Source: Eledone cirrhosa (lineage: Eukaryota). Taken from it: 64,000 nucleotides of DNA. Below, one piece after another: positions 7,400-60,600 of this stretch. The notes beneath the pieces are model-generated. The model was not told where the DNA came from. It saw only the letters and a list, made by a program, of their open reading frames with translations, and did not search any database. The stretch spans positions 37,262,001 through 37,326,000 of the forward strand of contig OZ024743.1 of the NCBI GenBank assembly GCA_964016885.1, read 5' to 3'. The translations under genes were made by a program, and so were the position numbers. Within the stretch, counting starts at the first letter, position 1. Every line of letters starts with the position of its first letter.

Positions 7400-10300
7400 A
7401 CAATAATGAGAAAATAAGAGCTTTATAAGCAACAACAGCAATAGCAGCACCAGTAGCAATAGCAGCATAACAACATCACTACCAACAGCAACACCACCAG
7501 CAACAACACCACCAACAACAACACCCCCAACAACACCACCAACACAATCAACACCACCAACAACAACAGCACCATCAACAACAGAACCAACAACAACACC
7601 ACCCACAACAGCACCACCAATAACGACACCACCAACAACACCAACTACACCACCACCAACAACACCACCAACAACAACACCACCAATAACAACATCACCA
7701 AAACCACCACCACCAACAACACCACCAACAACAACACCACCGACAACAACACCACCGACAACAACACCACCAATAACATCACTACCAACAACAACACCAC
7801 CGACAACAACATCACGAATAACAACATCACCAACAATACCACCACCAACAACATCACCAACAACACCACCACCAACAACAGCATCACCAACAACACCACC
7901 AACAACAACACCACCAGTAACAACACCACCAACAACAACACCACCAATAACAACATCACCAACAACACCACCACCAACACCACCACCAACAACACCACCA
8001 CCGACAACAACACCACCAACAACAACACCACCAATAACAACATCACCAACAACACCACCAACAACAACACCACCACCAACAACACCACCGACAACAACAC
8101 CACCAACAACAGCACCACCAACAACACCACCAACAACACCATCACCAACAACACCACCAATAACAACACCACCAACAACACCACCACCACCACCAACACC
8201 ACCAACAACAACACCACCAATAACAACATCACCAACAACACCACCACCAACAACACCACCACCAACAACACCACCACCAACAACACCACCGACAACAACA
8301 CCACCAACAACAACACCACCAATAACAACACCACCACCAACACCACCACCAACAACACCACCAACAACACCATCACCAACAACACCACCAATAACAACAC
8401 CACCAATAACAACACCACCAACAACAACACCACCAACAACAACAACACCACCAACAACAACACCACCAACAACAACACCACCAACACCAACACCACCAAC
8501 AACACCACCACCAACAACACCACCACCAACAACACCACCACCAACAACACCACCAATAACAACACCACCAACAACAACACCACCAACACCAACACCACCA
8601 ACAACACCACCAACAACAACACCACCAACAACAACACCACCAATAACAACACCACCAACAACAACACCACCAACAACAACATTACCAACAACACCACCAC
8701 CACCAACAACACCACCAACAATAACACCACCAATAACAACACCACCACCAACAACACCACCAACAACACTACCACCAACAACACCACCAACAACACCACC
8801 AACAACACCACCAACAACAACACCACCACCAACAACACCACCAATAACAACACCACCAATAACAACACCACCAACAACATCACCACCACCAACACCACCG
8901 ACAACAACACCACCAACAACAACACCAACAACAACAACACCACCAACAACAACACCACCAACACCACCGACAACACCACCGACAACAACACCACCAACAA
9001 CAACACCACCAACAACAACACCACCACCAACAACAACACCACCAACAACACCGACAACAACACCACCGACAACAACACCACCAGCAACAACACCACCAAC
9101 AACAATACCAACAACAACAACAAAACCAATAACAATACCACCAACAACAATACCACCAACAACAACACCACCACCAACAACACCACCAATAACAACACCA
9201 CCAATAAAAACACCACCAACAACATCACCACCAACAACACCACCACCAACAACACCACCAACAACACCACCAACAACAACACCACCAATAACACCACCAC
9301 CAACAGCAACAACAACACCACCACCACCAACACCACCAACAACAACACCACCAACAACACCTACAACAACACCGCCAACAACACCAACACGACCAACAAC
9401 CTCCAACACCACCACCAACAGCAACAACAACACCACCACCACCAACACCACCACCACCAACACCACCAACAGCATCACCAACAACAACAACACCAACAAC
9501 AACAACAACAACAACACCAACAACACCACCAACAACACCACCAACAACAACACAACCAATAACAACACCACCGACAACAAAAACACCACCAACACCACCG
9601 ACAACAACACCACCAACAACAACACCAACAACAACAACACCACCAACAACAACACCACCAACACCACCGACAACACCACCGACAACAACACCACCAACAA
9701 CAACACCACCAACAACAACACCACCACCAACAACAACACCACCAACAACACCGACAACAACACAACCGACAACAACACCACCAGCAACAACACCACCAAC
9801 AACAATACCACCAACAACAAAACCACCAATAACAATACAACCAACAACAATACCACCGACAACAACACCACCAACAACAACACCAACAACAACAACACCA
9901 CCAACAACAACACCACCAACACCACCGACAACACCACCGACAACAACACCACCAACAACAACACCACCAACAACAACACCACCACCAACAACAACACCAC
10001 CAACAACAATACCACCAACAACAACACCACCAATAACAATACCACCAACAACAATACCACCAACAACAACACCACCAACACCACCACCAACAACACCACC
10101 AACAACACCACCAACAACACCACCAACACCACCACCACCAACAACAACAACACCAACAACACCACCACCAACAACAACACCGACACCACCACCACAACAA
10201 ACACCGCCACCTCCAACACCACCACCACCACCAACACCACCACCACCACCACCACCACCAACAACAACACCACCATCACTTCCAACAACAATAACAACCA

Positions 10301-10545
10301 CCAACCCCACCACCACCACCATCACCACCAACACCAACAACACCACCAGCACCACCAACAACAAAAAAAACCACCAAATACTTCCAACAACAATAACAGC
10401 CACCAACACCACCTAATACTTCCAACAACAATAACAGCCACCACCACCACCACCACCACCACCACCACCACCACCACCACCACTACCAACACCACCACCA
10501 ACAACAATACCACCATCACTTCCAACAACAATAACAACATGGTCA
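7400..10545. repeat. Degenerate (AAC/ACC)n trinucleotide tract, ~3.1 kb, with internal ~260-bp duplications
   Basis: Direct reading. A block marked by the same ccg variants recurs at about 8897, 9598 and 9856. Confidence 0.95.
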
Positions 10546-10654
10546 AACACGAAATAAAACTTGTTTCGCATTAAGTGTTAGTAATGACACTGTAAGGCTG
10601 AGTAAAGACAGAGACGAGAAGGTATTAAGGAAGGAAAGGGGAGATAATAAGACA

Positions 10655-13600
10655 CACCATCTACACCACACCATCTACACCACACCAATCTACACAACAC
10701 CATCTACACCACACCACTCTACACCACACCATCTACACCACATCATCTACACTGACTACACCACACCATCTACACCACTCTACACCATACTACACCACTC
10801 TACACCACACTACACCACTCTACACCACACTACACCACACTACACCACACTACACCACTCTACACCACACTACACCACTCTACACCACACTACACCACAC
10901 CACACTACACCACATTACACCACACTACACCACACTACACCACACTACACCACTCTACACCACACTACACCACACTACACCACACTACACCACTCTACAC
11001 CACACTACACCACTCTACACCACACTACACCACTCTACACCACACTACACCACTCTACACCACACTACACCACACCACACTACACCACACTACACCACTC
11101 TACACCATACTACACCACTCTACACCACATTACACCACACTACACCACACTACACCACACTACACCACTCTACACCATACTACACCATACTACACCACTC
11201 TACACCATACTACACCACACTACACCACTCTACACCACTCTACACCACACTACACCACTCTACACCATACTACACCACACTACACCAGACTACACCACAA
11301 TACACCACATTACACCACTCTACACCATACTACACCACTCTACACCACACTACACCACTCTACACCACACTACACCACTCTACACCACTCTACACCCCAC
11401 TACACCACTCTACACCACTCTACACCACTCTACACCATACTACACCACTCTACACCATACTACACCACTCTACACCACTCTACACCACTCTACACCATAC
11501 TACACCACTCTACACCATACTACACCCCACTACACCACTCTACACCACTCTACACCACTCTACACCATACTACACCACTCTACACCATACTACACCACTC
11601 TACACCACTCTACACCATACTACACCACTCTACACCATACTACACTACACTACACCACTCTACACCATACTACACCACTCTAAATCACACTACACCACTC
11701 TACACCACTCTAACCATACTACACCACACTACACCATACTACACCACACTACACCACACTACACCACACTACACCACTCTACACCATACTACACTACACT
11801 ACACCACACTACACCACACTACACCATACTACACTACACTACACCACACTACACCACTCTACACCATACTACACCACTCTACACAATACTACACCACACT
11901 ACACCACTCTACACCACTCTACACCACCACACTACACCACACAACACCACACTACACCACTCTACACCACACTACACCACACTACACCACACTACACCAC
12001 TCTACACCACTCTACACCACACTACACCACACTACACCACACTACACCACACTACACCACTCTACACCACACTACACCACTCTACACCAGACTACACCAT
12101 TCTACACCATACTACACCACTCTACACCACACTAAACCACTCTACACCACAATACACCACACTACACCACACTACACCACTCTAAACCACTCTACACCAC
12201 ACTAAACCACCCTACATCACACTACACCACACTGCACCACACTACACCAATTTACACCACTCTACACCACACTACACCACACTACACCACTCTACACCAT
12301 ACTACACCACTCTACACCACACTACACCACACTACACGACACTACACCACACTACACCACACTACACCACTCTACACCACACTGCACCACTTACACCATA
12401 CAACACCACACTACACCACACTACACCACACTACACCACTCTACACCACAATACACCACACTACAGCACTCTACACCATATTACACCACTCTACACTACA
12501 CTACACCACACTACACCATACTACACCACTCTACACCACTCTACACCACTCTACACCACACTACACCACTCTACACCACACTACACCACCTACACCACAC
12601 TACACCATACTACACCACTCTACACCATACTACACCACTCTACACCACACTACACCACTCTACACCACTCTACACCATACTACACCACTCTACACCACAC
12701 TACACCACTCTACACCACACTACACCACTCTACACCCCACTACACCACACTACACCACTCTACACCATACTACACCACTCTGCACCACACTACACAACAC
12801 TACACGACTCTACACCATACTACACCACTCTAGACCATACTACACCCCTCTACACGACACTACACCACTCTACACCACACTACACCACTCTACACCACAC
12901 TACACCACTCTACACCACACTACACCACTCTACACAACTCTACACCATACTACACCACTCTACACCACTCTACACCACGCTACACCTCACTACACCACTC
13001 TACACCACTCAACACCACACTACACCTCTCTACACCACTCTACACCATACTACACCACACTACACCACTCTACACCACACAACACCACTCTACACCACTC
13101 TACACCATACTACACCACTCTACACCACTCTACACCACACTACACGACACTACACCACACTACACCACACTACACCACTCTACACCACACTGCACCACTT
13201 ACACCATACTACACCACACTACACCACACCACACTACACCACACTACACCACTCTACACCACAATACACCACACTACAGCACTCTACACCATATTACACC
13301 ACTCTACACCACACTACACCACTCTACACCACACTACACCACCTACACCACACTACACCATACTACACCACTCTACACCATACTACACCACTCTACACCA
13401 CACTACACCACTCTACACCACTCAACACCACACTACACCTCTCTACACCACTCTACACCATACTACACCACTCTACACCACTCTACACCACACAACACCA
13501 CTCTACACCACTCTACACCATACTACACCACACTACACCATACTACACCACACTACACCACTTTACACCACACTACACCATACTACACCACACTACACCA

Positions 13601-16600
13601 CTCTACAACACTCTACACCATACTACACCACTCTACACCACACTACACCACTCTACACCACACTACACCACACTACACCACTTTACACCACACTACACCA
13701 CTCTATACCACACTACACCATACTATACCACACTACACCACACTACACCACTCTACACCACTCTAACCATACTACCCCATACTACACCATACAACACCAC
13801 TCTACACCACACTACAACACACTACACCACACTACACCACACTACACCATACTACACCACACTACACCACACTACACCACACTACACCACACTACACCAC
13901 ACTACACCACTCTAAGCCACACTACGCCACTCTACACCACACTACACCACTCTACACCACACTACACCACTCTACACCACTCTACCTCACACTACACCAC
14001 TCTACACCACTCTATACCAAACTATACCACTCTACACCACTCTACCCCATACTACACCACTCTACACCACTCTACACCACGCTACACCACACTACACCAC
14101 TCTACACCACTCTACCTCACACTACACCACTCTACACCACTCTACACCAAACTACACCATACTACACCACTCTACACCACTCTAAATAACTCTACACCAC
14201 TCTAAACCACTCTACACCACACTACACCATACTACTCCACACTACACCACTCTACACCATACTACACCACTCTACACCACACTACGACACTCTACACCAC
14301 TTTAACCATACTACACCACACTACACCATACTACACCACTCTACACAACACTACACCACACTACACCACACTACACCACTCTACACCACACTACACCACT
14401 CTACACCACACTACACCACACTACACCATACAACACCACACTACACCACACTACACCACACTACACCACTCTACACCACACTACACCATACTACACCAAT
14501 CTACACATACTACACCACTCTACACCACACTACACCACTCTACACCACACTACACCACTCTACACCACACTACACCATACTACACCACACTACACCACTC
14601 TACACCATACTACACCACTCTACACCACACTACACCACTCTACACCACTCTAACCATACTACACCACACTACACCATACTACACCACTCTACACCACACT
14701 ACACCACACTACACCACACTACACCATACTACACCACACTACACCACACTACACCACACAACACCACTCTACACCACACTACACCACTCTACACCACACT
14801 ACACCACTCTACACCACTCTACCTCACACTACGCCACTCTACACCACTCTATACCAAACTATACCACTCTACACCACTCTACACCACACTACACCACGCT
14901 ACACCACACTACACCACTCTACACCACTCTACCTCACACTACACCACTCTACACCACTCTACACCAAACTACACCATACTACACCACTCTACACCACTCT
15001 AAATAACTCTACACCACTCTACATCACTCTACACCACACTACACCATACTACTCCACACTACACCACTCTACACCATACTACACCACTCTACACCACACT
15101 ACACCACTCTGCACCACTCTAACCATACTACACCACATTACACCATACTACACCACTCTACACTACACTACACCACACTACACCACACTACACCACTCTA
15201 CACCACACTACACCACACTACACCACTCCTCACCACACTACACCATACTACACCAATTTACACCATACTACACCACTCTACACGACAATTACACCACTCT
15301 ACACCACACTACACCACTCTACACCACACTACACCACTCTACATCACACTACACCACTCTACACCAAACTATACCACTCTACACCACTCTACACCATACT
15401 ACACCCCTCTACACCACTCTACACCACGCTACACCACACTACACCACTCTACACCACTCTACATCACACTACACCACTCTACACCACACTACACCATACT
15501 ACACCACACTACACCACTCTACACCACTCTACACCATACTACACCACTCTACACCACACTACACCACTCTACACCACACTACACCGCTCTACACCACACT
15601 ACACCATACTACATCAATCTACACCACTCTACACGACACTACACCACTCTACACCACACTACACCACTCTACACCACACTACACCAATCTACACCACACT
15701 ACACCACTCTACACCACTCTATACCAAACTATACCACTCTACACCACTCTACACCACTCTACACCATACTACACCACACTACACAACTCTACACCATACT
15801 ACTCAACTCTACACCACACTACACCACTCTACACCACTCTAACCATACTACACCAGACTACACCATACTACACCACTCTACACCACACTACACCAGACTA
15901 CACCACACTACACCATACTACACCACACTACACCACACTACACCACACTACACCACTCTACACCACACTACACCACTCTACACCACACTACACCATACTA
16001 CACCAATCTACACCATACTACACCACTCTACACCACACTACACAACTCTACACCACACTACACCACTCTACACCACACTACACCACTCTACACCACACTA
16101 CACCACTCTACACACCTTTATACCAAACTATACCACTCTACACCACTCTACACCATACTACACCACTCTACACCACTCTACACCACGCTACACCACACTC
16201 CACCACTCTACACAACTCTACATCACACTACACCACTCTACACCACTCTACACCATACTACACCATACTACACCACTCTACACCACTCTAAATAACTCTA
16301 CACCACTCTACACCACTCTACACCACACTACACCATACTACACCACACTACACCACTCTACACCGTACTACACCATTCTACACCACACTACACCAATCTA
16401 CACCACTCTAACCATACTACACCACACTACACCACTCTACACCACACTAACCATACTACACCACACTACACCACTCTACACCACTCTACACCACACTACA
16501 CCACTCTACACCACACTACACCACATTACACCACTCTACACCATACTACACCACTCTACACCACTCTACACCACTCTACACCACTCTACTCCACACTACA

Positions 16601-19600
16601 CTACTCTACACCACTCTACACCATACTACACCACACTACACCACACTACACGACTCTACACCACACTACACCACTCTAAATAACTCTACACCACTCTACA
16701 CCACTCTACACCACACTACACCATACTACAACACACTACACCACTCTACACCATACTACACCACTCTACACCACACTACACCACTCTACACCACTCTAAC
16801 CATAATACACCACACTACAGCACTCTACACCATATTACACCACTCTACACCACACTACACCACTCTACACCACACTACACCACCTACACCACACTACACC
16901 ATACTACACCACTCTACACCATACTACACCACTCTACACCACACTACACCACTCTACACCACTCAACACCACACTACACCTCTCTACACCACTCTACACC
17001 ATACTACACCACTCTACACCACTCTACACCACACAACACCACTCTACACCACTCTACACCATACTACACCACACTACACCATACTACACCACACTACACC
17101 ACTTTACACCACACTACACCATACTACACCACACTACACCACTCTACAACACTCTACACCATACTACACCACTCTACACCACACTACACCACTCTACACC
17201 ACACTACACCACACTACACCACTTTACACCACACTACACCACTCTATACCACACTACACCATACTATACCACACTACACCACACTACACCACTCTACACC
17301 ACTCTAACCATACTACCCCATACTACACCATACAACACCACTCTACACCACACTACAACACACTACACCACACTACACCACACTACACCATACTACACCA
17401 CACTACACCACACTACACCACACTACACCACACTACACCACACTACACCACTCTAAGCCACACTACGCCACTCTACACCACACTACACCACTCTACACCA
17501 CACTACACCACTCTACACCACTCTACCTCACACTACACCACTCTACACCACTCTATACCAAACTATACCACTCTACACCACTCTACCCCATACTACACCA
17601 CTCTACACCACTCTACACCACGCTACACCACACTACACCACTCTACACCACTCTACCTCACACTACACCACTCTACACCACTCTACACCAAACTACACCA
17701 TACTACACCACTCTACACCACTCTAAATAACTCTACACCACTCTAAACCACTCTACACCACACTACACCATACTACTCCACACTACACCACTCTACACCA
17801 TACTACACCACTCTACACCACACTACGACACTCTACACCACTCTAACCATACTACACCACACTACACCATACTACACCACTCTACACTACACTACACCAC
17901 ACTACACCACACTACACCACTCTACACCACACTACACCACACTACACCACTCCTCACCACACTACACCATACTACACCAATTTACACCATACTACACCAC
18001 TCTACACGACAATTACACCACTCTACACCACACTACACCACTCTACACCACACTACACCACTCTACATCACACTACACCACTCTACACCAAACTATACCA
18101 CTCTACACCACTCTACACCATACTACACCCCTCTACACCACTCTACACCACGCTACACCACACTACACCACTCTACACCACTCTACATCACACTACACCA
18201 CTCTACACCACACTACACCATACTACACCACACTACACCACTCTACACCACTCTACACCATACTACACCACTCTACACCACACTACACCACTCTACACCA
18301 CACTACACCGCTCTACACCACACTACACCATACTAGATCAATCTACACCACTCTACACGACACTACACCACTCTACACCACACTACACCACTCTACACCA
18401 CACTACACCAATCTACACCACACTACACCACTCTACACCACTCTATACCAAACTATACCACTCTACACCACTCTACACCACTCTACACCATACTACACCA
18501 CACTACACAACTCTACACCATACTACTCAACTCTACACCACACTACACTACTCTACACCACTCTAACCATACTACACCAGACTACACCATACTACACCAC
18601 TCTACACCACACTACACCAGACTACACCACACTACACCATACTACACCACACTACACCACACTACACCACACTACACCACTCTACACCACACTACACCAC
18701 TCTACACCACACTACACCATACTACACCAATCTACACCATACTACACCACTCTACACGACACTACACCACTCTACACCACACTACACAACTCTACACCAC
18801 ACTACACCACTCTACACCACACTACACCACTCTACACCACACTACACCACTCTACACACCTTTATACCAAACTATACCACTCTACACCACTCTACACCAT
18901 ACTACACCACTCTACACCACTCTACACCACGCTACACCACACTCCACCACTCTACACAACTCTACATCACACTACACCACTCTACACCACTCTACACCAT
19001 ACTACACCATACTACACCACTCTACACCACTCTAAATAACTCTACACCACTCTACACCACTCTACACCACACTACACCATACTACACCACACTACACCAC
19101 TCTACACCGTACTACACCATTCTACACCACACTACACCAATCTACACCACTCTAACCATACTACACCACACTACACCACTCTACACCACACTAACCATAC
19201 TACACCACACTACACCACTCTACACCACTCTACACCACACTACACCACTCTACACCACACTACACCACATTACACCACTCTACACCATACTACACCACTC
19301 TACACCACTCTACACCACTCTACACCACTCTACTCCACACTACACTACTCTACACCACTCTACACCATACTACACCACACTACACCACACTACACGACTC
19401 TACACCACACTACACCACTCTAAATAACTCTACACCACTCTACACCACTCTACACCACACTACACCATACTACACCACACTACACCACTCTACACCATAC
19501 TACACCACTCTACACCACACTACACCACTCTACACCACTCTAACCATAATACACCACACTACAACACTCTACACCACACTAACCATACTACACCACACTA

Positions 19601-20567
19601 CACCATACTACACCACTCTACACTACACTAAACCACACTACACCACACTACACCATACTACACCACACTACACCACACTACACCACACTACACCACACTA
19701 CACCACACTACACCACAATACACCACTCTACACCATACTACACCACTCTACACTACTCTACACCACTCTACACCACACTACACCACTCTACACCACACTA
19801 CACCACTCTACACCACTCCACACCATACTACACCACACTACACAACACTACACCACTCTACACCACACTACACCACTCTACACCACACTACACCACTCTA
19901 CACCACACTACACCACTCTACAGCACGCTACACCACTCTACACCACTCTACACCACTCTACACCATACTACACCACACTACACCATACTACACCACACAA
20001 CACCACTCTATACCATACTACACCACTCTACACCACACTACACTACTCTACACCACTCTAACCATACTACACCACACTACACCATACTACACCACTCTAC
20101 ACCACACTACACCACACTACACCATACTACACCACACTACACCACTCTACACCACACTACACCACTCTACACCACACTACACCACTCTACACCACACTAC
20201 ACCACTCTACACCACACTACACCATACTACACCACACTACACCATACTACACCACTCTACACCGCACTACACCACTCTACACCACACTACACCACTCTAC
20301 ACCACACTACACCACACTACACCACACTACACCATACTACACCACACTACACCACACTACACCATACTACACCACACTATACCACACCACACCACTCTAC
20401 ACCACACTACACCACTCTACACTACACTACACCACTCTACACCACACTACACCACTCTACACCACTCTACACCACTCTACACCATACTACACCACACTAC
20501 ACCATACTACACCACTCTACACCACACTACACCACTCTACAACACACTACACCACTCTACACCACAT
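10655..20567. repeat. 10-bp satellite TACACCA(CAC/CTC/TAC), ~9.9 kb, with kb-scale higher-order duplications
   Basis: About 990 decamers. Rare variants recur in the same order, e.g. tctaagccac at ~13911 and ~17452, tcctcaccac at ~15227 and ~17951. Confidence 0.97.
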
Positions 20568-27867: not shown

Positions 27868-28432
<565 letters not shown>

Positions 28433-28434
28433 CA

Positions 28435-28636
28435 ATGATATTAAATAAATGGAAACTATATTTATAAAACCATATTTATTCTATTATATATATTTCAAGT
28501 GTACCAAAAATCTTTGATACGCTATCATCAGATGAAATACGAAGTGTGTTTTATAAATTTTGACATAACCAAGGATAATATACCTTAACGGTTCAAGTTA
28601 TCCCTGGAATTACCAACAAATTGAATACCCCTTCTG

Positions 28637-28894: not shown

Positions 28895-28934
<40 letters not shown>

Positions 28935-28941
<7 letters not shown>

Positions 28942-29766
28942 TTAGTATATCTACCAACATATGTATACAGATGTATACCCATGCTAGCAAATATATATGC
29001 TATGTCTTAATACCTTTGTGGTTCTATGCAGTGGGATACAGAACAATTATATGAAAGACGTAAAATAAGAAAATTTTAAAAATTAACTTACTTACTAAAA
29101 TTTTCACTCCAACTAATTAGTTTCTGTAAGGGAATAAATATAGTTACACAACGCAACTATAGAGAAGTCCTTACGTCATCAGGGAGTCTATTCTCAGCTA
29201 GGTTCCCAGGCAATGCGCGGACACTAGGAACCCATATAAAAATAATAATTCAGTGGATGGAATAAAGCTAGCGGGGACTAAATTCCAGGGCACTGAAAAA
29301 ATTCACTGGCTGCTTGGTCAGTGGCAAATTCTAAATAATCAATCACGTGACACTGAAGTTAATCAGTGAGGAGTGGGGTGGTATTATGAAAAGAGCCTAA
29401 CTACTACCATGAACCATAGCAGTAAATTTCAGCAAGTTTTGCTCAACAAATAATTTGGAGATAAATATAGAGAATTAGTATATCTACCAAAATATGTATA
29501 CAGATGTATACCCATGCTAGCAAATATATATGTTATGTCTTAATAGCTTTGTAGGTCTATGCAGGGGAATGCAGAACAATTATATGAAAGAGTAAAATAA
29601 GAAAATTTTAAAAATTAACTCACTTACTAAAATTTTCACTCCAAATAATTAGTTTCTGTTAGGGAATAAATATAGTTACGCAACGCAACTATAGAGAAGT
29701 CCTTACGTCATCAGGGAGTCTATTTTAGTAAGTAAGTTAATTTTTAAAATTTTCTTATTTTACGTC

Positions 29767-29775
<9 letters not shown>
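28935..29775 (-). mobile_element. Partial tandem (532-bp period) HHR-bearing element with short inverted tail; HHRs at 29106-29187 and 29638-29719
   Basis: Minus strand reads actcc-CTGATGA-cgtaagg..ccttaca-GAAA-CTAATTAG-TT^-ggagt. 28935-29192 is repeated at 29468-29724. 29722-29775 is an inverted piece. Confidence 0.8.
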
Positions 29776-30078: not shown

Positions 30079-30281
30079 GTGAGAAAAACCACAGACCCTC
30101 CATCTCAACTCACCTTTTGAAAAGCAGAAGAACTGCGAAACCGGTAAAGGAACCAAATAAATATATATATTTAAAAAAAAAATAAGACTCCAGTTGCATT
30201 TTAGATTTCATCTCTTTTTCTTTATACTTTCACTCGTGTAGGACACCTCAGTTATTTTTAATTTTGTAAAAAAAACCTCAC

Positions 30282-30287: not shown

Positions 30288-30380
<93 letters not shown>

Positions 30381-30668
30381 CAAATAACGAAACGAAATTA
30401 AATTTCGTTTCGTTTGTAACTCACTTTTGTATGACTGACGCTTAAACAATTAAGTTAAAAATGTACATCTACATATGCATACTGAAATACTAGTATGCAT
30501 ATGAATACACACACGTATACATATGTAGATGTACCAAGTCTTTCACTGGTTACTTTACTGTGAGTATCCAGCTATTCTGTATGTAAACACACAGACAAAC
30601 CGGTTTTTAGAGTCATACTGGTTTTTGAGGAAACACCTTTCCTCTATTCTCCAGAAAGCCAGACAAGG

Positions 30669-30713
30669 AATATTGAACTAGTTTCGTTGTTATTACAACT
30701 CATCAGCAATATT
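30669..30713 (-). ncRNA. Canonical minimal type I hammerhead ribozyme
   Basis: aatattg-CTGATGA-gttg taataa caac-GAAA-CTAG-TT^-caatatt. Confidence 0.88.
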
Positions 30714-31232
30714 TACCTATCTACCGGCCTTTCTGGAGAATCGTAAAAGCACATATCGTTATATGCTTTTTCTATGAAAATTAGTAGTGGGCAGACTAAT
30801 TTGCATAGAGTGTGAGTACGTACCGGTTCAACGGAGACGATAAAAACAAATAACGAAACGAAATTAAATTTCGTTTCGTTTGTAACTCACTTTTGTATGA
30901 CTGACGCTTAAACAATTAAGTTAAAAATGTACATCTACATATGCATACTGAAATACTAGTATGCATATGAATACACACACGTATACATATGTAGATGTAC
31001 CAAGTCTTTCACTGGTTACTTTACTGTGAGTATCCAGCTATTCTGTCATACAAAAGTGAGTTACAAACGAAACGAAATTTAATTTCGTTTCGTTATTTGT
31101 TTTTATCGTCTCCGTTGAACCGGTACGTACTCACTCTCTATGCAAATTAGTCTGCCCACTACTAATTTTCATAGAAAAAGCATATAACGATATGTGCTTT
31201 TACGATTCTCCAGAAAGGCCGGTAGATAGGTA

Positions 31233-31277
31233 AATATTGCTGATGAGTTGTAATAACAACGAAACTAGTTCAATATT
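31233..31277 (+). ncRNA. Canonical minimal type I hammerhead ribozyme (inverted copy)
   Basis: Identical to 30669-30713. Stem I is extended by ttctccagaaag / ctttctggagaa. Confidence 0.88.
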
Positions 31278-31495
31278 CCTTGTCTGGCTTTCTGGAGAAT
31301 AGAGGAAAGGTGTTTCCTCAAAAACCAGTATGACTCTAAAAACCGGTTTGTCTGTGTGTTTACATACAGAATAGCTGGATACTCACAGTAAAGTAACCAG
31401 TGAAAGACTTGGTACATCTACATATGTATACGTGTGTGTATTCATATGCATACTAGTATTTCAGTATGCATATGTAGATGTACATTTTTAACTTA

Positions 31496-31542
<47 letters not shown>

Positions 31543-31769
31543 ATATATACATATATACATATATATATGTATATATACATATATACATATATACATATAC
31601 ATATATACATATATACATATATACACACACATATAAGTACATATATAAGCACACGCACACTCACATATACAGGTACACACACATGAACACAAAATCAGTT
31701 ACATCTAACGAATGATGTCTTTTTCTGTGCTATTTGTCTTTCATGAAACTAAACAAGTATTATAATGAA

Positions 31770-31945
31770 TTGGCAGTATCGGTAGAGGGTCGGAAGCCAT
31801 GCTTTGCAGCACAGTTACGTCCCTTACAGACTGAGTTCAAATCCCGCCGAGGTTAACTTTGCCTTTCATCCTTACGGGGTCGATAAAATAAAGTACCAGT
31901 AATGCACTGGGTTATTGCTGGCCTTGTGCCATAAGTAGAAACAAT
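31770..31945 (+). mobile_element. Nin-domain tRNA-SINE
   Basis: tggcagtatcggtagag..gagttcaaatcccgccgagg..gcctttcatccttacggggtcgataaaataaagtaccag..ggccttgtgcc. Confidence 0.88.
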
Positions 31946-32094: not shown

Positions 32095-32277
32095 GAGAAA
32101 GTGAGGTTTTTTTTTACAGAATGAAAAATAAAGAAAATAAGAGGAAATCGAAAATGCAACTGGAGTATCATTTAAAAAAAAAATATATATATATTTATTT
32201 GGTTCCTTTACCGGTTTCGCAGTTCTTCTGCCTTTCAAAAGTAGAGTTGAGATGGAGGATCTGTGGTTTTTCTCACA
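32095..32277 (-). mobile_element. Inverted copy of the 30079-30287 element (HHR 32205-32242, core TTGAAAG)
   Basis: Reverse-complement match, with an internal deletion. Confidence 0.75.
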
Positions 32278-33141: not shown

Positions 33142-35385
33142 TATTCACCTAGCTTATGCTAAACGAATAAATTTTGAAGCTTGTTTCTCCCCTAAGGTTT
33201 GCTATATTTTCTGTTGTTCTCCTGTCACACTCGCTTTACGCGTTTTAATTGTCCTAATAACTTATTTTGGTTATTATTGCACCGAAGTGAGATATATGAT
33301 TTTTAATGCAATGAAATATCTATGATCTTCGGCAAATCACTGATGAGGGACTTATTTTATTTCATGTTACCATGTGCGACCTGCAGTATTTTTCTCTATA
33401 TTTTAATACATATATTTACCACTGCGATTCTGTGTTTTTTTCTCTCTCTCTTACTGTTCCCCCATTCTCTCTGTTTCTCCCCCTCTGTCTTGTCCGTTAA
33501 CTCTTCCTCACACTTTCACTCACTCACTGTTTTTCTCCCTCTTCTCTTCATTTCATCCTGCACTCACGAACGCTAATTTTTCTCTCTCTGCTCAATAGCT
33601 TTCGTTTGTGTTGGTACTATTCTCTCAGCTCTCATATATTCACCTAGCTTATGCTAAACGAATAATTTTTGAAGCTTGTTTCTCCCCTAAGGTTTGCTAT
33701 ATTTTCTGTTGTTCTCCTGTCACACTCGCTTTACGCGTTTTAATTGTCCTAATAACTTATTTTGGTTATTATTGCACCGAAGTGAGATATATGATTTTTA
33801 ATGCAATGAAATATCTATGATCTTCGGCAAATCACTGATGAGGGACTTATTTTATTTCATGTTACCATGTGCGACCTGCAGTATTTTTCTCTATATTTTA
33901 ATACATATATTTACCACTGCGATTCTGTGTTTTTTTTCTCTCTCTCTTACTGTTCCCCCATTCTCTCTGTTTCTCCCCCTCTGTCTTGTCCGTTAACTAT
34001 TCCTCACACTTTCACTCACTCACTGTTTTTCTCCCTCTTCTCTTCATTTCATCCTGCACTCACGAACGCTAATTTTTTTCTCTCTCTGCTCAATAGCTTT
34101 CGTTTGTGTTGGTACTATTCTCTCAGCTCTCATATATTCACCTAGCTTATGCTAAACGAATAATTTTTGAAGCTTGTTTCTCCCCTAAGGTTTGCTATAT
34201 TTTCTGTTGTTCTCCTGTCACACTCGCTTTACGCGTTTTAATTGTCCTAATAACTTATTTTGGTTATTATTGCACCGAAGTGAGATATATGATTTTTAAT
34301 GCAATGAAATATCTATGATCTTCGGCAAATCACTGATGAGAGACCTATTTTATTTCATGTTACCATGTGCGACCTGCAGTATTTTTCTCTATATTTTAAT
34401 ACATATATTTACCACTGCGATTCTGTGTTTTTTTTCTCTCTCTCTTACTGTTCCCCCATTCTCTCTGTTTCTCCCCTTCTGTCTTGTCCGTTAACTCTTC
34501 CTCACACTTTCACTCACTCACTGTTTTTCTCCCTCTTCTCTTCATTTCATCCTGCACTCACGAACGCTAATTTTTCTCTCTCTGCTCAATAGCTTTCGTT
34601 TGTGTTGGTACTATTCTCTCAGCTCTCATATATTCACCTAGCTTATGCTAAACGAATAATTTTTGAAGCTTGTTTCTCCACTAAGGTTTGCTATATTTTC
34701 TGTTGTTCTCCTGTCACACTCGCTTTACGCGTTTTAATTGTCCTAATAACTTATTTTGGTTATTATTGCACCGAAGTGAGATATATGATTTTTAATGCAA
34801 TGAAATATCTATGATCTTCGGCAAATCACTGATGAGGGACTTATTTTATTTCATGTTACCATGTGCGACCTGCAGTATTTTTCTCTATATTTTAATACAT
34901 ATATTTACCACTGCGATTCTGTGTTTTTTTTCTCTCTCTCTTACTGTTCCCCCATTCTCTCTGTTTCTCCCCCTCTGTCTTGTCCGTTAACTCTTCCTCA
35001 CACTTTCACTCACTCACTGTTTTTCTCCCTCTTCTCTTCATTTCATCCTGCACTCACGAACGCTAATTTTTCTCTCTCTGCTCAATAGCTTTCGTTTGTG
35101 TTGGTACTATTCTCTCAGCTCTCATATATTCACCTAGCTTATGCTAAACGAATACTTTTTGAAGCTTGTTTCTCCCCTAAGGTTTGCTATATTTTCTGTT
35201 GTTCTCCTGTCACACTCGCTTTACGCGTTTTAATTGTCCTAATAACTTATTTTGGTTATTATTGCACCGAAGTGAGATATATGATTTTTAATGCAATGAA
35301 ATATCTATGATCTTCGGCAAATCACTGATGAGGGACTTATTTTATTTCATGTTACCATGTGCGACCTGCAGTATTTTTCTCTATA
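33142..35385. repeat. Tandem array, ~496-bp unit x ~4.5, near-identical copies
   Basis: Equivalent positions at 33325, 33820, 34318, 34814 and 35310. Pyrimidine-rich. Each unit contains caCTGATGAg. Confidence 0.97.
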
Positions 35386-35442
35386 TATATATACATATAT
35401 ATATATGCATACGTACACACACACACACACATATATATATAT

Positions 35443-35539: not shown

Positions 35540-36172
<633 letters not shown>

Positions 36173-36251: not shown

Positions 36252-36309
<58 letters not shown>

Positions 36310-36312
<3 letters not shown>

Positions 36313-38860
36313 GGAGGTGAGTTTTATTGTAGTACAATAAAGCAATGCAGATATCGGATAAGAAGCACTCTACAGTTTGTGGGACTGGAGTATACATAAT
36401 ATATAAGAACAAAAGATGATTAAAGGAGTTCCATGTATTTTATTATGCGCATTTCAAATTACTATCTTAAATTGCAATATAGTTAACCTTAATATTATTA
36501 AGAACAATATACGTAATCTCTTTAACCAACATAACCTAAAAATTGAATTTGATAACAGTATCAAACTAGCTACTTTATTGGATGTATCTCTTAATCTTGA
36601 CACTGGCCTATAATACCCTTACCATAAAAACAATGAGAACCTAAATTATGTTAACTTTAAATCTAACCATCCTACTAATATCAAGAATGCTATAGTTAGT
36701 AATATTGGAAAAAGAATATCTAACCTATCTTCTAATAAAAATATCTTTGATGCTAACGCCAATTACTATAATAACGCGCTTTCTAAAGCCGGCTATCCTG
36801 ATAAAATCAAATATAGTAAAGAAACAAATTCTAGAAGAACTTACAGTAGAATAATTAATCATGATCATTCCAATAACTTTAACAAAAGACCTAGATACAA
36901 AAACATAATCTGGTATAATGCTCCTTTCTCCATCTCTATTAATAACAATATTCCTAAATTATTCTTTAGTGCCTTAAATAAATGCTTCCCTCCCTCACAT
37001 ATCTATAGTAAAATATTTAACAAACACACCATAAAATGTTCTTATTCTACATCCTCCAACATTTCCAACATTATCTCTAAACACAACAATAAAATACTAA
37101 ATACTAAATCTCTTCCTTCCAACACTGAATTTCATAATAATAGTACTCCCGACGTCATTGTAAACCCTAGGCTAATTTCTACAAACCCAAATACAACGTC
37201 AAACACAACTTCGCTAAATGTTCATAATCCCACTCTAAATCAAGAAACTATTATTCCTATCGCAAACAACTTCTCCAATCCAATTCCTTCTATAGATAAC
37301 ACTAGGTCACTCATTAATAATCTCTCTAATTGCAATTGCAATTGCCCTATTAAAAATAAATGTACTCTCAACAACCATTGTCTTGATAAAAACTTAATTT
37401 ACGAATGTAAAGTTATAACTGACACCAATTCCTTCACCTATTTTGGCTCCACTTCCACCTCTTTTAAAGCTCGTCTTTATAACCATCATACGTCTTTTAA
37501 ATACAAACTTAAAAGAACCAACACGACTCTCTCAGAACTCATATGGTCCTTGAAAGACAAAAACATTAAATATAGCATCTTTTGGAAGAAGGTTTCTTCT
37601 GCGTCTTAATACTTGAACAGTTCTCTATCTAAAATCTGCAATCTCTGTCTAAATGAAAAAATTACCATTATCTCTAATCTAGATTCTATAATAAATAGAC
37701 GCACTGACTTGTTTTCTATCTGCTTGCATAAATTCCATAAAACATTTCACAAAGTATACAGCTAATATTTAATTCTTTATCAATTTAGAATCTTTTTCTC
37801 AAAGGCACATATATATACACTTCTTTTAAAAATATACCCATCTTTCTACCTTACTTCAAAGGTTATTATACATTCTATAATACTTGTTTACTCATTACTC
37901 TTACTCTATATCACCTTGTAAAATCCTTCGTAAACATATACATTTTTTTTGATGCTAGATTATTCATCCTCAATTCATTATTCTTTTCTCCCTATCATCT
38001 AACTCATTATTCTCAATACATATTAACATTTTCTTTTTCTTCGCACATATTATCAAATCCTTCAATATACAAACCTTAACTTTACATTATTTTTCTCTTC
38101 GTTAATTTTCAAATTTCCATATTACTTGTTGACTCTTTCTACATCACCCATATTTATCACTTCCTTTTCTTCTCTTCTAATATCTAACCCCCTAATCTGT
38201 ACCTTTTCTCACTCTTGCCTAACATAGAATCAATTATTACATAATACAACACATTCTTACTCTATATCACCTTATAAAAATCCTTCGTAAACATATACAT
38301 GTTTTTTAACGTTAGAATATTCATCCTCAATTCATTATTCTTTTCTCCCTATCATCTAACTCATTATTCTCAATACATATTAACTCCTTCTCTTTCTTCG
38401 CACATATTTTTCTCTTTTTCTCTTCGTTAATTTTCAAATTCTTTTAATTTATACATTATCTTCCAACGGTTTTCAACCTCTCTATGTAAAACAATATATC
38501 TTTCTCAGTTATAAAAACTATCTCTCTCTCTCTATCACCCATCTCTCCTCCTATCTCATCCTTCCTCACTATACTCCTCCTTCTCCACCTTCAGTCTCAT
38601 CTCCTCCTCTTTTTTTCATCCTTTCCACCCCCCTCTAAATAAAATATTTTTCCCAATATCACACATCAATCTAAAACTATTTCTCATATGTTGATTTAAA
38701 ACTGAACTATCCACAAGTGTTTTTTAGCCTTCATATCATGTCCTCCTGTTTTATCTGATGAAAACACAAATATTATTGCATGATGATATTTGTTTTTGAA
38801 ATGCGCATAATAAAATACATGGAAGTCCTTTAACCATCTTTTGTTCTTATATATTATATA
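36310..38860 (+). mobile_element. 5'-truncated Penelope-like retroelement (Nematis-like) with inverted 5' pLTR, RT C-terminus plus GIY-YIG, long 3' UTR and HHR
   Basis: Manual translation 36458-37764 (two internal stops): LLDVSLNL..SNHP..IIWYNAPFS..KIFNKHTIKCSYS..CNCPIKNKCTLNNHCLDKNLIYECKV..YFGSTSTSFKARLYNH..CNLCLNEK..INRRTDL. 36393-36457 is the reverse complement of 38795-38860. Confidence 0.9.
38749..38815 (+). ncRNA. Hammerhead ribozyme in the PLE 3' pLTR
   Basis: ttttat-CTGATGA-aaacacaaatatt..gatatttgttttt-GAAA-TGCGCA-TA^-ataaaa. Confidence 0.85.
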
Positions 38861-41411: not shown

Positions 41412-44400
41412 AAAACAACAAAAAAGAAAACCCCGTGACCAAGAAATAACGGGATGTCGGCCGGCGGGGAATAGCCGTGTCTCTAGGGGAGGACGACCCC
41501 TCTAGTCTTGGTTGACACTCGTCCTAGAAGTGGTAACACGAAGTGATTACCCTTGGCGGTTAAGGCTAAAACGCGACAAAATAAAGTAAATGTCTAATGA
41601 TAAAATCTCATACTGGATCGGCCGTCACCCGGGCCAAAAAGAGCCGCGTCCCTCAGAGAGGAACCAGACTGGGGTCGAAAAATCAGCTAATGGTTCAAAC
41701 CTTCCCATCACTTCGGAGCTAGAGACCTCCCATAACCGGAATACTCCTCCTGTTGGCCCTCCATGCTCACCACCAAGAAATCCAAAGAAAAAGAGAGAAA
41801 AATGGTCAAGGGAAGACAATAAAAAGTCCTTGAGTCTTTCTACACTGCCATGTACTACCCATCAAATAGATCTAATACAAAACAGACATATATCAACTGG
41901 AAAAAGAAACATCCCGAAAACAGAAGCTATATTGACAGTAACAAAATAGCTAATATACGAAGAAATATTGTAAAAAAAAAAGTTACTAACTGATATAGAA
42001 ATTGATCAGATCAAGCTATTAGCACAAAGTCAGCGAAGGGAAAATGAAACATGTGTCAGTGAAAACGAGGTTAATTGTAACACTTTGAATCCCAGTGTTG
42101 GGACGGAATCACTGACAACAGAACAAATTAAAGAAAGGCTCGAAAAAGTGGAGGGAGTGCATGCTCAAGATGAAACTCAAAATGAAAACAATGAAATCGT
42201 AAATGATAAGGAAATGAATGAGAATGAACTTGCCAGCTTGAAGGATAAAATTCTGACCGGATGGATGAAAATGAAAGAATCTGACATGGGGGAACGAGAC
42301 ACTCTCCCTAAGATCCAGAACTCCAAACAGAACCAAAAGATAATACACAAGACTAACATAATTCTCAAAAACATTATTATCACAAACAAACTAAACATTA
42401 CTGACTTAAATCATCTCTATTATGCATCGGCTAAAGTCACCACTCACTTATGTGGAGTGAAAATGAAAAAAACAAAGGAATTCCCACAAGAAATCTACTT
42501 GGCAAGAGAACATCAATCGCCAAATAAACCTTCTCCGATCTGACATAGAAATGTTAACAAACTACAAAGTAGGTGAAAATGTTAAACAAACTAAACTTAG
42601 AAAATTGAAAAGAAAATACAGTATAAAATCAACAAGTGACATAGACATGCTGATAGAAATAATCAAGCAAAAAGTGTCGGCCAATGCTGCTCGTATAAGG
42701 CGCTTTGAAAAACGATCTAGATTCTATAAGGACAATAATATGTTAAAAAACAACCAAAGAAACTTCAACAGAAAAATTGGCAAGTCAACAATAACTGCTA
42801 AATCAATACCACCCAAGGAGGAAGTGCAAGAATTCTGGCAAAAGATCTGGGCCGAAGAAAAAGTTCATAATATACATGCCGCATGGATAGACAGACAAAT
42901 GAAAGATACAGCTCACCTTGAAGAACAAACATGGGAAAATATAACAGTTTTGCTCTTAGAAAAACCAGCAAATGGAAATCCCCAGGAAAAGACAAAATAC
43001 CAAATGTTTGGATAAATGCCTTCAGAGTCTCATGAGCTGTTAGCCCAACTTTACAATGAAATAGTTAAGGAGCCAGAAAAGATACCATCATGGCTAGTTA
43101 ACGGCATTACATTCCTGCTTCCGAAGAATGATGAGACAAACAATCCCAAAAATTACAGACCGATAACTTGCTTGACCACAATGTATAAAATTTTAACATC
43201 AGTCCTAACTGAATATACATATGACCACCTGATAACAAATGACTTATTTCCCAATGAGCAGAAAGGGTGTAAACGAGGCTCATATGGCTGTAAGGATCAG
43301 CTTCTGGTTAACAAAATGATACTGGAAGATTGTCATAATAGACACAAAAATCTATCCATTGCTTGAATAGATTATAAAAAAGCATTCGATAGTTTGCCAC
43401 ACAGTTGGATTGAAAAATGTTTAGAGATTGTCAAAATATCTCCCGTTGTCAGGAGGTTCCTGTCATTCAGTATGAAGACATGGATACTCCTTTTGAATAG
43501 TGAAAAAAAATCACTGGAAGCTGGAGAAGTTAATATTAATTGTGGAATTTTTCAGGGTGACTCTTTATCACCGCTTTTATTCTGCATCGCACTTATACAA
43601 TTAAGTAAAATGCTCAATGAAACAAAACAGGGATATAAAGTCTATGACAAAACCATTAATCACTTGTTCTACATGGATGACCTGAAACTATTTGCAAAAA
43701 ATGATGAACAATTGCAAGGGCTATTATCCACTGTGGAGCAGTTCAGTGATGACATTAAAATGGCGTTTGGACTAGATAAATGCGCCAAAGCAACGTTCAC
43801 CAGAGGAAAGCTGCTAAAAAGTTCAGACATTAATCTTGATCGGAGGAATGTGATGAGAGAACTTGATCAAGAGCAAACTTACAAATATCTAGGTGTTTGT
43901 GAAGGAGACGGAATCAAGCACTCGACAATGAGGGAAAGGATAAGGAAGGAGTGTTACCGCAGAGTAAGAGCAATCTTAAGAACATAATTGAATGCAAGGA
44001 ATAGGATCCATGCCATAAACACGCTTGCCATACCAGTAGTAACCTACAGTTACAATGTCATCAACTGGTCAAGCACAGAGATCCGTAGGCTCGATACAAA
44101 AATTAGAAAATTCTTAACCATGCACAGAATGCATCACCCTAAGGCAGATACAGATAGAATATATCTCCCTAGGAAAGAAGGAGGACGTCGGTTAATCCAG
44201 TTAGATATTGCGTTGAAAACTGCAACAATTGGATTATCTACATATCTAAGGGAATCACATGATTGGATGATCAAACTCGTTTTGAAACACGAAAGCATCA
44301 AAAGATCATACTCCATTACAAAAGATGCACAAAGATACAGTAATGGACTACACATTTCAGAAGTCCCATTTACTGCTGAAATGGAAAACAAGAACAGCAA

Positions 44401-54059: not shown

Positions 54060-54312
54060 ATGGTCGCATTCTTTAAGGGTATGTCAATATTTATTTATAA
54101 AACTGATCTATATTATATTTTATCTGATGAAAGCACACCATAATTTAACTTGGTGTCCTTGAAATATGTATAATGAAATAAATATGGTTTTATAAATATA
54201 GTTTCCATTTGTTAATATATCGTATTTTTACTCCAATAATTTGTTGAGTGCTTTATATCAGTTATAAAAATATTTGCTTGTTGTATCCCAACAATTTAAA
54301 TAGAACTTCTAC
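54060..54312 (+). mobile_element. Family A pLTR with HHR (54116-54180), preceded by a pyrimidine-rich UTR-like stretch
   Basis: tattttat-CTGATGA-aagcACACCA..TGGTGTcctt-GAAA-TATGTA-TA^-atgaaata. Confidence 0.75.
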
Positions 54313-60100: not shown

Positions 60101-60600
60101 ATAAGTTTTTGGTGTTCTGTTTGTACAGTAGAGTCATGAATTTCGGCCTCGTTGTTGATGTGGTGACAATTACTACTAGAGTTAGCTGACAATTCTCGCT
60201 GTTCTTCAGTGGAAGTGGGATGGATTTCAGCGAAATTGTTGGTGAGCTGTTCACTGTTAGATTTAGCTGGCCATTCTCTTTGTCTGTCAGTGGAGGTGGG
60301 GTGGTTGTCTACAAGGGCTGTATTTGTAGTATCACTCAATTCCGTTAGATGTATCAATTTATATCTAATGATACGTTTTTGCCTGTTCATTTAAATGCTT
60401 TGGAGAAAAGTCTAATTGTGGGTGTTTGGAGTTCCATAAAGTTTTTAGCCTTTGCATAAAACCGAATTTTTGGGGTTCAGATTGTTTGTATGCTTCATAT
60501 AATTCTTTGTTAAGCTCGTAGCTCCACCGTATACAACGGTTGTAGTTGCGATTTGGTCGAAGGAGACTTGTACGTTTTGCCATGATGAGTTCGTCTATTC
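57108..60600 (-). mobile_element. Near full-length R4-clade retrotransposon (frameshifts, ~100-bp deletion near 58235)
   Basis: N-terminus RWSYELNKELYEAY..W..KHP; KNYRPIACQ, EQAGG, WLDYQKAFDSVPH, GTFQGDSL, FFVDELKL; CCHC knuckle; RPD REL domain. Confidence 0.95.

Follow-up and report, generated by a model that had tools for sequence, protein, structure and literature searches.

How does a short non-coding unit come to lie in the genome as two arms that face each other head-to-head, and from which template and by which enzyme was it written there? The question is raised by a locus of Eledone cirrhosa (3.0-Gb assembly GCA_964016885.1, contig OZ024743.1) within the stretch of 64,000 nucleotides analyzed here, hereafter called the window. 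A 466-nt unit occurs at this locus as arms of 1.44 and 0.98 units, flanked on both sides by (TA)n, and an ORF scan of the locus found no reading frame of at least 150 aa. Metazoan non-LTR retrozymes, i.e. tandem hammerhead repeats of this general kind, have been proposed to be mobilized by Penelope-like elements (PLEs) through rolling-circle reverse transcription (Cervera and de la Pena 2020, PMC7229834), and the entry of retrozymes into new loci, by PLE enzymes acting on circles, is still a proposal in that work. We suggest herein that the element is a non-LTR retrozyme, probably copied as a circular ADAR-edited monomer from two fixed internal starts by a borrowed Penelope-like reverse transcriptase/endonuclease. 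The pairing of a retrozyme with a PLE enzyme is very likely; that a circular monomer was the main template is probable, to a lesser degree.

Coordinates below are those of the window, and positions in the unit are numbered from the first base 3' of the hammerhead cut. The parts of the insertion are as follows.

30288..30376: left-hand portion of the target, a (TA)44 microsatellite
30374..31046, minus strand: left arm, 1.44 units, ribozyme sense on minus; its 3' end is fixed site 302 (30374/5) and its inner 5' end is position 96
30374..30445, minus strand: ~72-nt "tail" between both fixed 3' ends (positions 231-302), terminal only at the left end
30653..30724, minus strand: left-arm type I hammerhead, cut predicted 3' of 30676
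31045..31046: inversion joint, with a 2-nt microhomology between the arms (4/5 nt allowing one mismatch)
31045..31500, plus strand: right arm of 456 nt, running from position 241 to 230; its 3' end is the second fixed site (228-233) and continues into TA
31066..31094, plus strand: perfect hairpin directly 5' of site 302 (31106 in the right arm)
31206..31299, plus strand: long stem around the hammerhead, predicted to keep both ends of the cleaved monomer together
31233..31277, plus strand: right-arm hammerhead core, GUU cut predicted after 31270
31412..31483, plus strand: long hairpin directly 5' of the 228-233 end
31500..31647: right-hand portion of the target, consisting of (TA)n plus degenerate TA repeat

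An earlier note on this DNA had described 1.4 tandem copies of a 466-bp unit, followed by an inverted copy, with about one base of difference between copies. This description holds: at a period of 466, nucleotides 30374-30580 are identical to 30840-31046 over 207 nt, the inverted copy can be aligned over 31042-31503 (its strict extent being 31045-31500, 456 nt or 0.98 unit), and the right arm differs from the left at a single internal position, 31135. The unit has a GC content of 0.35, and the tail at the left end contains a hairpin of 13-14 bp (30386-30414). Target-site duplications are unreadable within (TA)n. The length of the inverted arm, close to one unit, is a matter of chance, because arms in the sampled insertions of this family span from about 0.1 to 31 units. 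As each window arm contains one hammerhead only, the window copy is a product and not a source of circles, and cannot itself release a unit-length circle. The insertion is enclosed, together with a stretch near 31790-31940 which we take to be SINE-like, by an inverted pair of ~160 nt (30079-30240 and 32115-32276) that is 86% identical.

On the plus strand, the hammerhead of the right arm consists of stem I (31233-31239 paired with 31271-31277), CTGATGA (31240-31246), stem II (31247-31260), GAAA (31261-31264), CTAG (31265-31268), and GTT (31268-31270). The Rfam model HH9 matches 31222-31293 on the plus strand and 30653-30724 on the minus strand with 39.1 bits (E 2.4e-7), which is under its gathering score of 52; nothing in the window scored above a gathering score, and the Rfam microRNA matches in the window were discarded as TA-repeat noise. 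Helix III comprises only 1-2 bp with a palindromic loop, and helix I is extended and bulged. These features define the canonical metazoan type I ribozyme, for which a dimer is needed (PMC4209133). The earlier note had read the motif as a perfect minimal type I hammerhead; the assignment to type I stands, whereas "minimal", the PLE type, does not fit the definition given in PMC4209133. The core is intact across full units of the family, with GUU or GUC as the triplet, and on the opposite strand of the unit neither a motif search nor the Rfam scan found a hammerhead, so that the ribozyme belongs to the sense strand only; other classes of ribozyme were covered by the Rfam scan. Cleavage of the unit is predicted from the intact core, and helix III suggests that it would be dimeric.

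The circularized unit is predicted to fold into a branched, not rod-like, structure that is far more stable than its shuffled versions (circular MFE -156.9 kcal/mol, z -11.1 relative to the -92.3 +/- 5.8 kcal/mol of 40 dinucleotide shuffles); for the antisense strand, z was -9.0. The tiling with hairpins described in the earlier note was likewise found, six of the named arm pairs being exact reverse complements and the seventh (ctatg/catag) being present in the predicted fold. Among 22 units picked for their diversity, 99.1% of the cells in the fold were paired, and seven of the 145 pairs were altered on both sides, including a change from U-A to A-U in hammerhead stem II; many G-U intermediates were seen as well. 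Cells with double changes numbered 29 versus 8.9 +/- 2.5 in shuffles (reached in 0 of 500), and pairs with double changes 7 versus 4.6 (reached in 33 of 500), although these shuffle counts are inflated by the relatedness of the sequences and are not probabilities.

The family is large. Allowing one mismatch at most, a 30-nt hammerhead pattern hit the genome 5,216 times (control, 0), and the same pattern without the first base of stem II gave 4,195 further hits, among which all 100 listed carry the compensated U-A to A-U pair; this amounts to ~9,400 family hammerheads. Arrays of the family have a period of 465-469 nt with a hammerhead in each unit. The view of a young, active retrozyme family is supported, and by the criteria that can be put to DNA the element is a non-LTR retrozyme. 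A related but more distant family with a period of ~420-540 nt has 30,750 hammerhead hits (control, 26), CTAG in helix III, a GUA or GUU triplet, and a conserved TTTATCGT at one end (seen at L065:7160-7960 and L041:3110-3620); by eye it has the same head-to-head anatomy, and some of its units contain internal (TA)n. For the surveys of sampled loci described below, overlapping or duplicate loci (L002, L006, L012, L016, L017, L020-L023, and L029) were dropped.

The ends of the insertions point to the enzyme. Outer 3' ends are fixed at two sites ~70 nt apart, i.e. position 302 and positions 228-233, each of which directly follows a long hairpin. Genome-wide, 2,277 exact TA junctions were found at 302 and 1,994 at 228-233 (controls, 0 and 2), which is near 1:1, and TA loose ends at the same two sites occur in the contigs of another sequencing run (X1). 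The same ends were found in a subfamily of only 88% identity. One end of each kind was present in 78 of the 89 two-armed insertions surveyed. In the first set (from which L055 and two edge-cut insertions were left out), 45 of 50 had one end at 302 and one at 226-235, and none had the same end twice; in the second, where 20 of the 60 loci had been picked by their ends, both kinds were present in 33 of 39, and one insertion was 233/233. All two-armed insertions were head-to-head, and in the first set TA flanked at least one side in 47 of 50 and both sides in 39 of 50, in agreement with the PLE-type inversion and (TA)n targeting proposed earlier. Inner joints, on the contrary, are scattered round the unit, with 1 of 100 lying within 5 nt of the cut site; the arms mostly overlap there by a few nucleotides, and the lengths of paired arms are uncorrelated (rho 0.10, n = 45). 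An apparent excess of inner joints at position 96 (9/100) was an artefact of the reference start point.

The earlier note had argued for a circular template from the permuted phase of the inverted copy, and had itself counted fixed ends against that view. The phase argument fails: random permutation of the ends is rejected, since the outer ends sit at two fixed sites, as the 2,277 and 1,994 junctions attest, and only the inner joint varies. Nonetheless, fixed ends are compatible with a circle, because a Penelope-type reverse transcriptase initiates internally (PMC11167929). PLE insertions are characterized by a partial tandem together with a 5'-truncated copy in inverted orientation, by a terminal tail on one side, and by a bias toward microsatellites (PMC8557442), and the PLE protein PAc in vitro nicks and extends both strands and starts reverse transcription at two internal sites whose spacing equals the tail (Frangieh et al. 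2024, PMC11167929). The anatomy seen here thus carries the Penelope "tail" or internal-initiation signature, with a tail of ~70 nt that is longer than the published 30-40 nt. The fixed ends identify the class of enzyme, and leave room for a circle as template.

A candidate source of such an enzyme is present. An abundant PLE-like family with intact 821-aa frames also inserts in TA; copies of it lie near retrozyme copies because both target TA. Its frame matched none of the Pfam families and had no significant PDB match, and the label rests on atlas neighbours, 13-100% of whose members bear HTH_animal, GIY-YIG, and RVT_1, along with motifs that we take to be those of PLEs. The terminal repeat and minimal hammerhead of this family are unrelated to the unit. 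No partner PLE homologous to the unit was found in 30 loci of this one PLE family or, by eye, in other PLE fragments; two strong hits of the unit profile on the 30 loci were a copy of the retrozyme family and a probable relative adjoining a PLE. A frame with reverse transcriptase and GIY-YIG between pseudo-LTRs (pLTRs) occurred neither at the locus nor in the family copies scanned for ORFs, and the element is therefore not an autonomous PLE.

The template was approached through the substitutions that insertions carry. Substitutions were called on the ribozyme strand after hits below 84% identity and the locus L090 had been dropped, and a rare variant fixed in all covering units was called insertion-wide. 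The discovery set held 16 insertion-wide A>G changes versus no T>C among 32 variants, and its single-unit variants were symmetric. As this bias had been noticed post hoc, 60 fresh loci were fetched as a check and gave 18 versus 7 (p 0.026); all 136 loci together gave 28 versus 7 (p 2.5e-4). Half of the A>G changes of the fresh set (9/18) come from a single locus, L162, and the fresh set without it stands at 9 versus 7. Counted as distinct sites with L162 left out, the numbers were 24 versus 8 (p 0.004), with 8 C>T and 5 G>A; counted per locus, they were 14 versus 7. The excess is not significant with commoner variants in and L162 out (p 0.07-0.11). Variants confined to single units, in contrast, showed no bias among the 136 loci (38 A>G versus 41 T>C), nor did mosaic variants (6 versus 7).

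A "G" was the 5' neighbour of 1 of the 28 edited A's versus 22 of all 148 A's in the unit, and 21 of the 28 were paired in the fold versus 91 of 148 overall. Depletion of an upstream G is a known preference of ADAR, and octopus is among the strongest RNA editors (PMC5625713). In the hyper-edited L162, nine rare A>G changes fall between positions 314 and 432. One of its 30-mers, which departs from the window unit by four A>G changes, is confined genome-wide to the three passes of L162 itself; a parent absent from the assembly could account for this haplotype. Errors of reverse transcription were rejected as the source of the A>G changes because passes would then differ from one another, and so was selection for G-U pairs alone, as there is no equal rise in C>T. 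Had a multimer been edited, single units would bear the marks; marks common to every unit point to a single monomer that was read many times. The pattern therefore looks like ADAR editing of one RNA that was read again and again.

We put at about even the chance that the insertions are a record of single ADAR-edited retrozyme circles having been reverse-transcribed in rolling-circle fashion, with a dimeric Penelope enzyme priming both strands of (TA)n at two internal sites of one circular RNA and copying the A-to-I edits of that molecule into each repeat of both arms. If this is true, RNA editing would be a main source of heritable change in the 466-nt family, driving pairs from A-U to G-U to G-C, and the insertions would document the movement of animal retrozymes directly in the genome. 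Insertion-wide edits would also exemplify RNA editing that has become fixed in the germ line, and they offer a general computational means, applicable to other animals, of telling circular from linear templates. A literature search outside most subscription journals, Repbase, and supplements returned nothing on editing marks in retrozyme copies or on a 466-nt family.

The structure of the arrays bears on the same point. Any arm longer than 302 nt must traverse the cut site, and thus its template was either a circle or an uncleaved multimer. No indel was found at the cut site in 204 full units. The youngest insertions comprise 20-33 near-identical units, and the youngest arrays are uniform over both arms (6.9+13, 17.6+8, and 18.7+14.8 units), none having more than a few differences. 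It is the longest insertions that have diverged least: the median single-unit divergence was 0.03% in 14 insertions with at least six passes versus 0.29% in 86 shorter ones (seven loci with several insertions dropped). In the window, both arms share a T in loop II, where 62 of 64 aligned units have C, and a rare base common to both arms argues for one template or one parent. Array homogeneity and the A>G bias thus uphold the proposal of a circular template that the phase of the copies could not.

A linear, uncleaved multimeric transcript, used by the same enzyme on the same element, is possible but rather doubtful as the template. Edits would then have become array-wide through later expansion of short insertions at the DNA level, followed by parenthood of the expanded array. 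Several observations suit this reading. Later expansion is evident: among 55 two-armed multi-pass insertions (six loci with several insertions dropped), 39 were uniform apart from single changes, while eight had variants that recur periodically in one arm, e.g. over the 31 units of L071+72, and such patterns show that long arrays need not be born long. Another eight were cross-arm mosaics, with variants present in both arms and absent from some units, and in part of them (L068, L143, L158, and L066) the mosaic is mirrored from the outer end, which a linear multimer would predict. Helix III is weak, and uncleaved RNA was the main substrate of a PLE in vitro (PMC11167929). Moreover, a haplotype that appeared private to one young insertion in our sample (L043+44) is not so genome-wide, having 69 hits at seven places, one with a 17-unit arm, which makes a linear parent possible for L043+44; privacy to one array in the sample is accordingly no proof of privacy in the genome.

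On the other side, the units of a multimer should be edited independently, yet neither single-unit nor mosaic variants have an A>G excess; the assembly contains no parent for the hyper-edited haplotype of L162; and the long young arrays show no fixed differences specific to one arm. Mosaics could also arise through gene conversion, recurrent mutation, or template switching, and at L206:3265-4121 an array changes its haplotype in mid-unit, by a template switch or recombination. Both kinds of template may be in use. In L075, which has a 15-unit arm, some units are altered beside the cut site or in helix III, partly in alternation. A 496-nt self-closing contig (466+30) of depth 4.5 was found in a further run, X4, one of four runs of unlabelled kind that were assembled into contigs. 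A circle would yield such a contig, but low-coverage tandem-repeat DNA would give the same, and it is not counted as evidence here.

With a circular monomer as the main template, the cycle would probably run as follows. Loci with at least two hammerheads would be transcribed and the RNA would be cleaved; a double hammerhead is the probable form, given a helix III of only 1-2 bp. The ends of the monomer would be kept together by the long stem and then joined by a host ligase, and ADAR would edit the stems of the RNA. The PLE protein would nick both strands of (TA)n, one 3' end priming at 302 and the other at 228-233, each directly 3' of a long hairpin. Each reverse transcriptase would circle the template for anything from a partial pass to many passes, and the two cDNAs would be joined via a microhomology of a few nucleotides. 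Arrays would later grow or shrink at the DNA level. Internal initiation would explain how an RNA without ends is reverse-transcribed, and since one genome provides precise start sites, the sequence of the target, insertions of very recent date, and PLE-like enzymes that are intact, the model is testable in vitro.

That the unit represents the pseudo-LTR of some ordinary, autonomous PLE, known here through truncated copies, is very improbable. The ends, the tail, and the inversion are indeed as in PLEs (PMC8557442), and ~140 of more than 2,000 insertions were inspected. However, no arm ran into an ORF in a scan of L031-L070, the arms looping back into the next unit instead, and the unit profile had no homology in the pLTRs of the 30 PLE loci with intact ORFs.

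Equally improbable is the footprint of an autonomously replicating, viroid-like RNA that copies itself from RNA to RNA and is occasionally reverse-transcribed. A strong circular fold, one haplotype shared by several very young loci, and a change at the RNA level recorded in the copies would all suit such an agent, but the motif search and the Rfam scan found no ribozyme on the opposite strand, the fold is branched, the low diversity is explained by A>G and ordinary mutation, and related genomic families are of long standing. The term "viroid-like" in the earlier note, taken as RNA-to-RNA replication, finds no support here. A DNA-level satellite or foldback repeat with an incidental hammerhead, or an assembly artefact, is scarcely credible and already largely refuted, for while some arrays do expand as DNA and palindromes are prone to misassembly, there are thousands of dispersed insertions with two exact ends, the same ends in contigs of another data set, compensatory pairs in the fold, and a strand-biased A>G change.

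The retrozyme, very likely moved by a PLE enzyme, can be set beside known systems. Like the retrozymes of PMC7229834, it has short, low-GC tandem units with one canonical type I hammerhead, no ORF, a strong fold, and thousands of copies ranging from dimers to multimers. Its unit of 466 nt differs from the RNAs of 170-400 nt reported there, where expression and circles were demonstrated, whereas the family described here is known from DNA. In the main text of that paper the word "inverted" is absent and "octopus" has no hits, and we encountered no mention there of arms set head-to-head, of a pair of fixed ends, of TA targeting, or of marks left by editing. Partial tandems, an inverted 5'-truncated copy, a one-ended tail, and microsatellite or AT-rich targets are shared with PLEs (Craig et al. 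2021, PMC8557442); unlike these, the element has no ORF, a tail of ~70 rather than 30-40 nt, a canonical instead of a minimal hammerhead, and arms of up to 31 units. Two internal starts downstream of the hammerhead are shared with PAc, as is the nicking and extension of both strands, which is proposed for the present element (PMC11167929).

A recent preprint treated retrozymes as non-autonomous PLE derivatives on the basis of co-occurrence and pLTR homology in 35 species, namely 31 vertebrates, three insects, and one coral (Li, Clavereau and Pollet 2026, 10.64898/2026.07.22.740005); it attributed tandems to local amplification and stated that the mechanism remains to be elucidated. The class and the proposed source of the enzyme are the same here, but no pLTR homology was found, while the ends bear the PLE signature; the window copy is not "active" in the sense of that preprint, which calls for two consecutive hammerhead units. 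MRC1 and other non-autonomous Chlamys PLEs offer a further parallel, being non-autonomous, multicopy head-to-tail, and made by a PLE (PMC8557442), although these share 3'-end similarity with their autonomous partners and come from a clade without canonical hammerheads. Judged by its anatomy, the element would work like a non-autonomous PLE. The class is thus already known; the novelty lies in having measured the paired two-site anatomy across a whole retrozyme family and in an editing record that bears on the template.

Other repeats of the window resemble the insertion to various degrees. A 5'-truncated copy of the abundant PLE-like family (36308-38860; 93% protein identity over 417 aa) carries a minimal hammerhead at 38755 on the plus strand, and its short inverted arm terminates in TA. 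Palindromic relics of PLE type lie at 635-984, 35636-36049, 54077-54275, and 28423-28608, and minimal hammerheads were found in such relics at 737(-)/881(+), 35741(-)/35944(+), and 54124(+). At 28925-29775, 1.5 units of a repeat with a 532-nt period and a short inverted arm ending in (TA)n are laid out like the retrozyme; no complete hammerhead was found in it, and each copy has CTGATGA on the minus strand. A 496-nt tandem repeat at 33142-35400 (4.6 copies, 98%, TA at the end) contains GAAA, a hairpin, and then CTGATGA, as in a permuted hammerhead, with stem II unpaired. Broken reverse transcriptase frames of non-LTR type (RVT_1, zf-RVT) occupy 43367-43987 (plus strand) and 57190-60133 (minus strand), and a 13-kb C/A-rich tandem array with periods of 9-15 and an extreme strand skew extends over 7469-20566.
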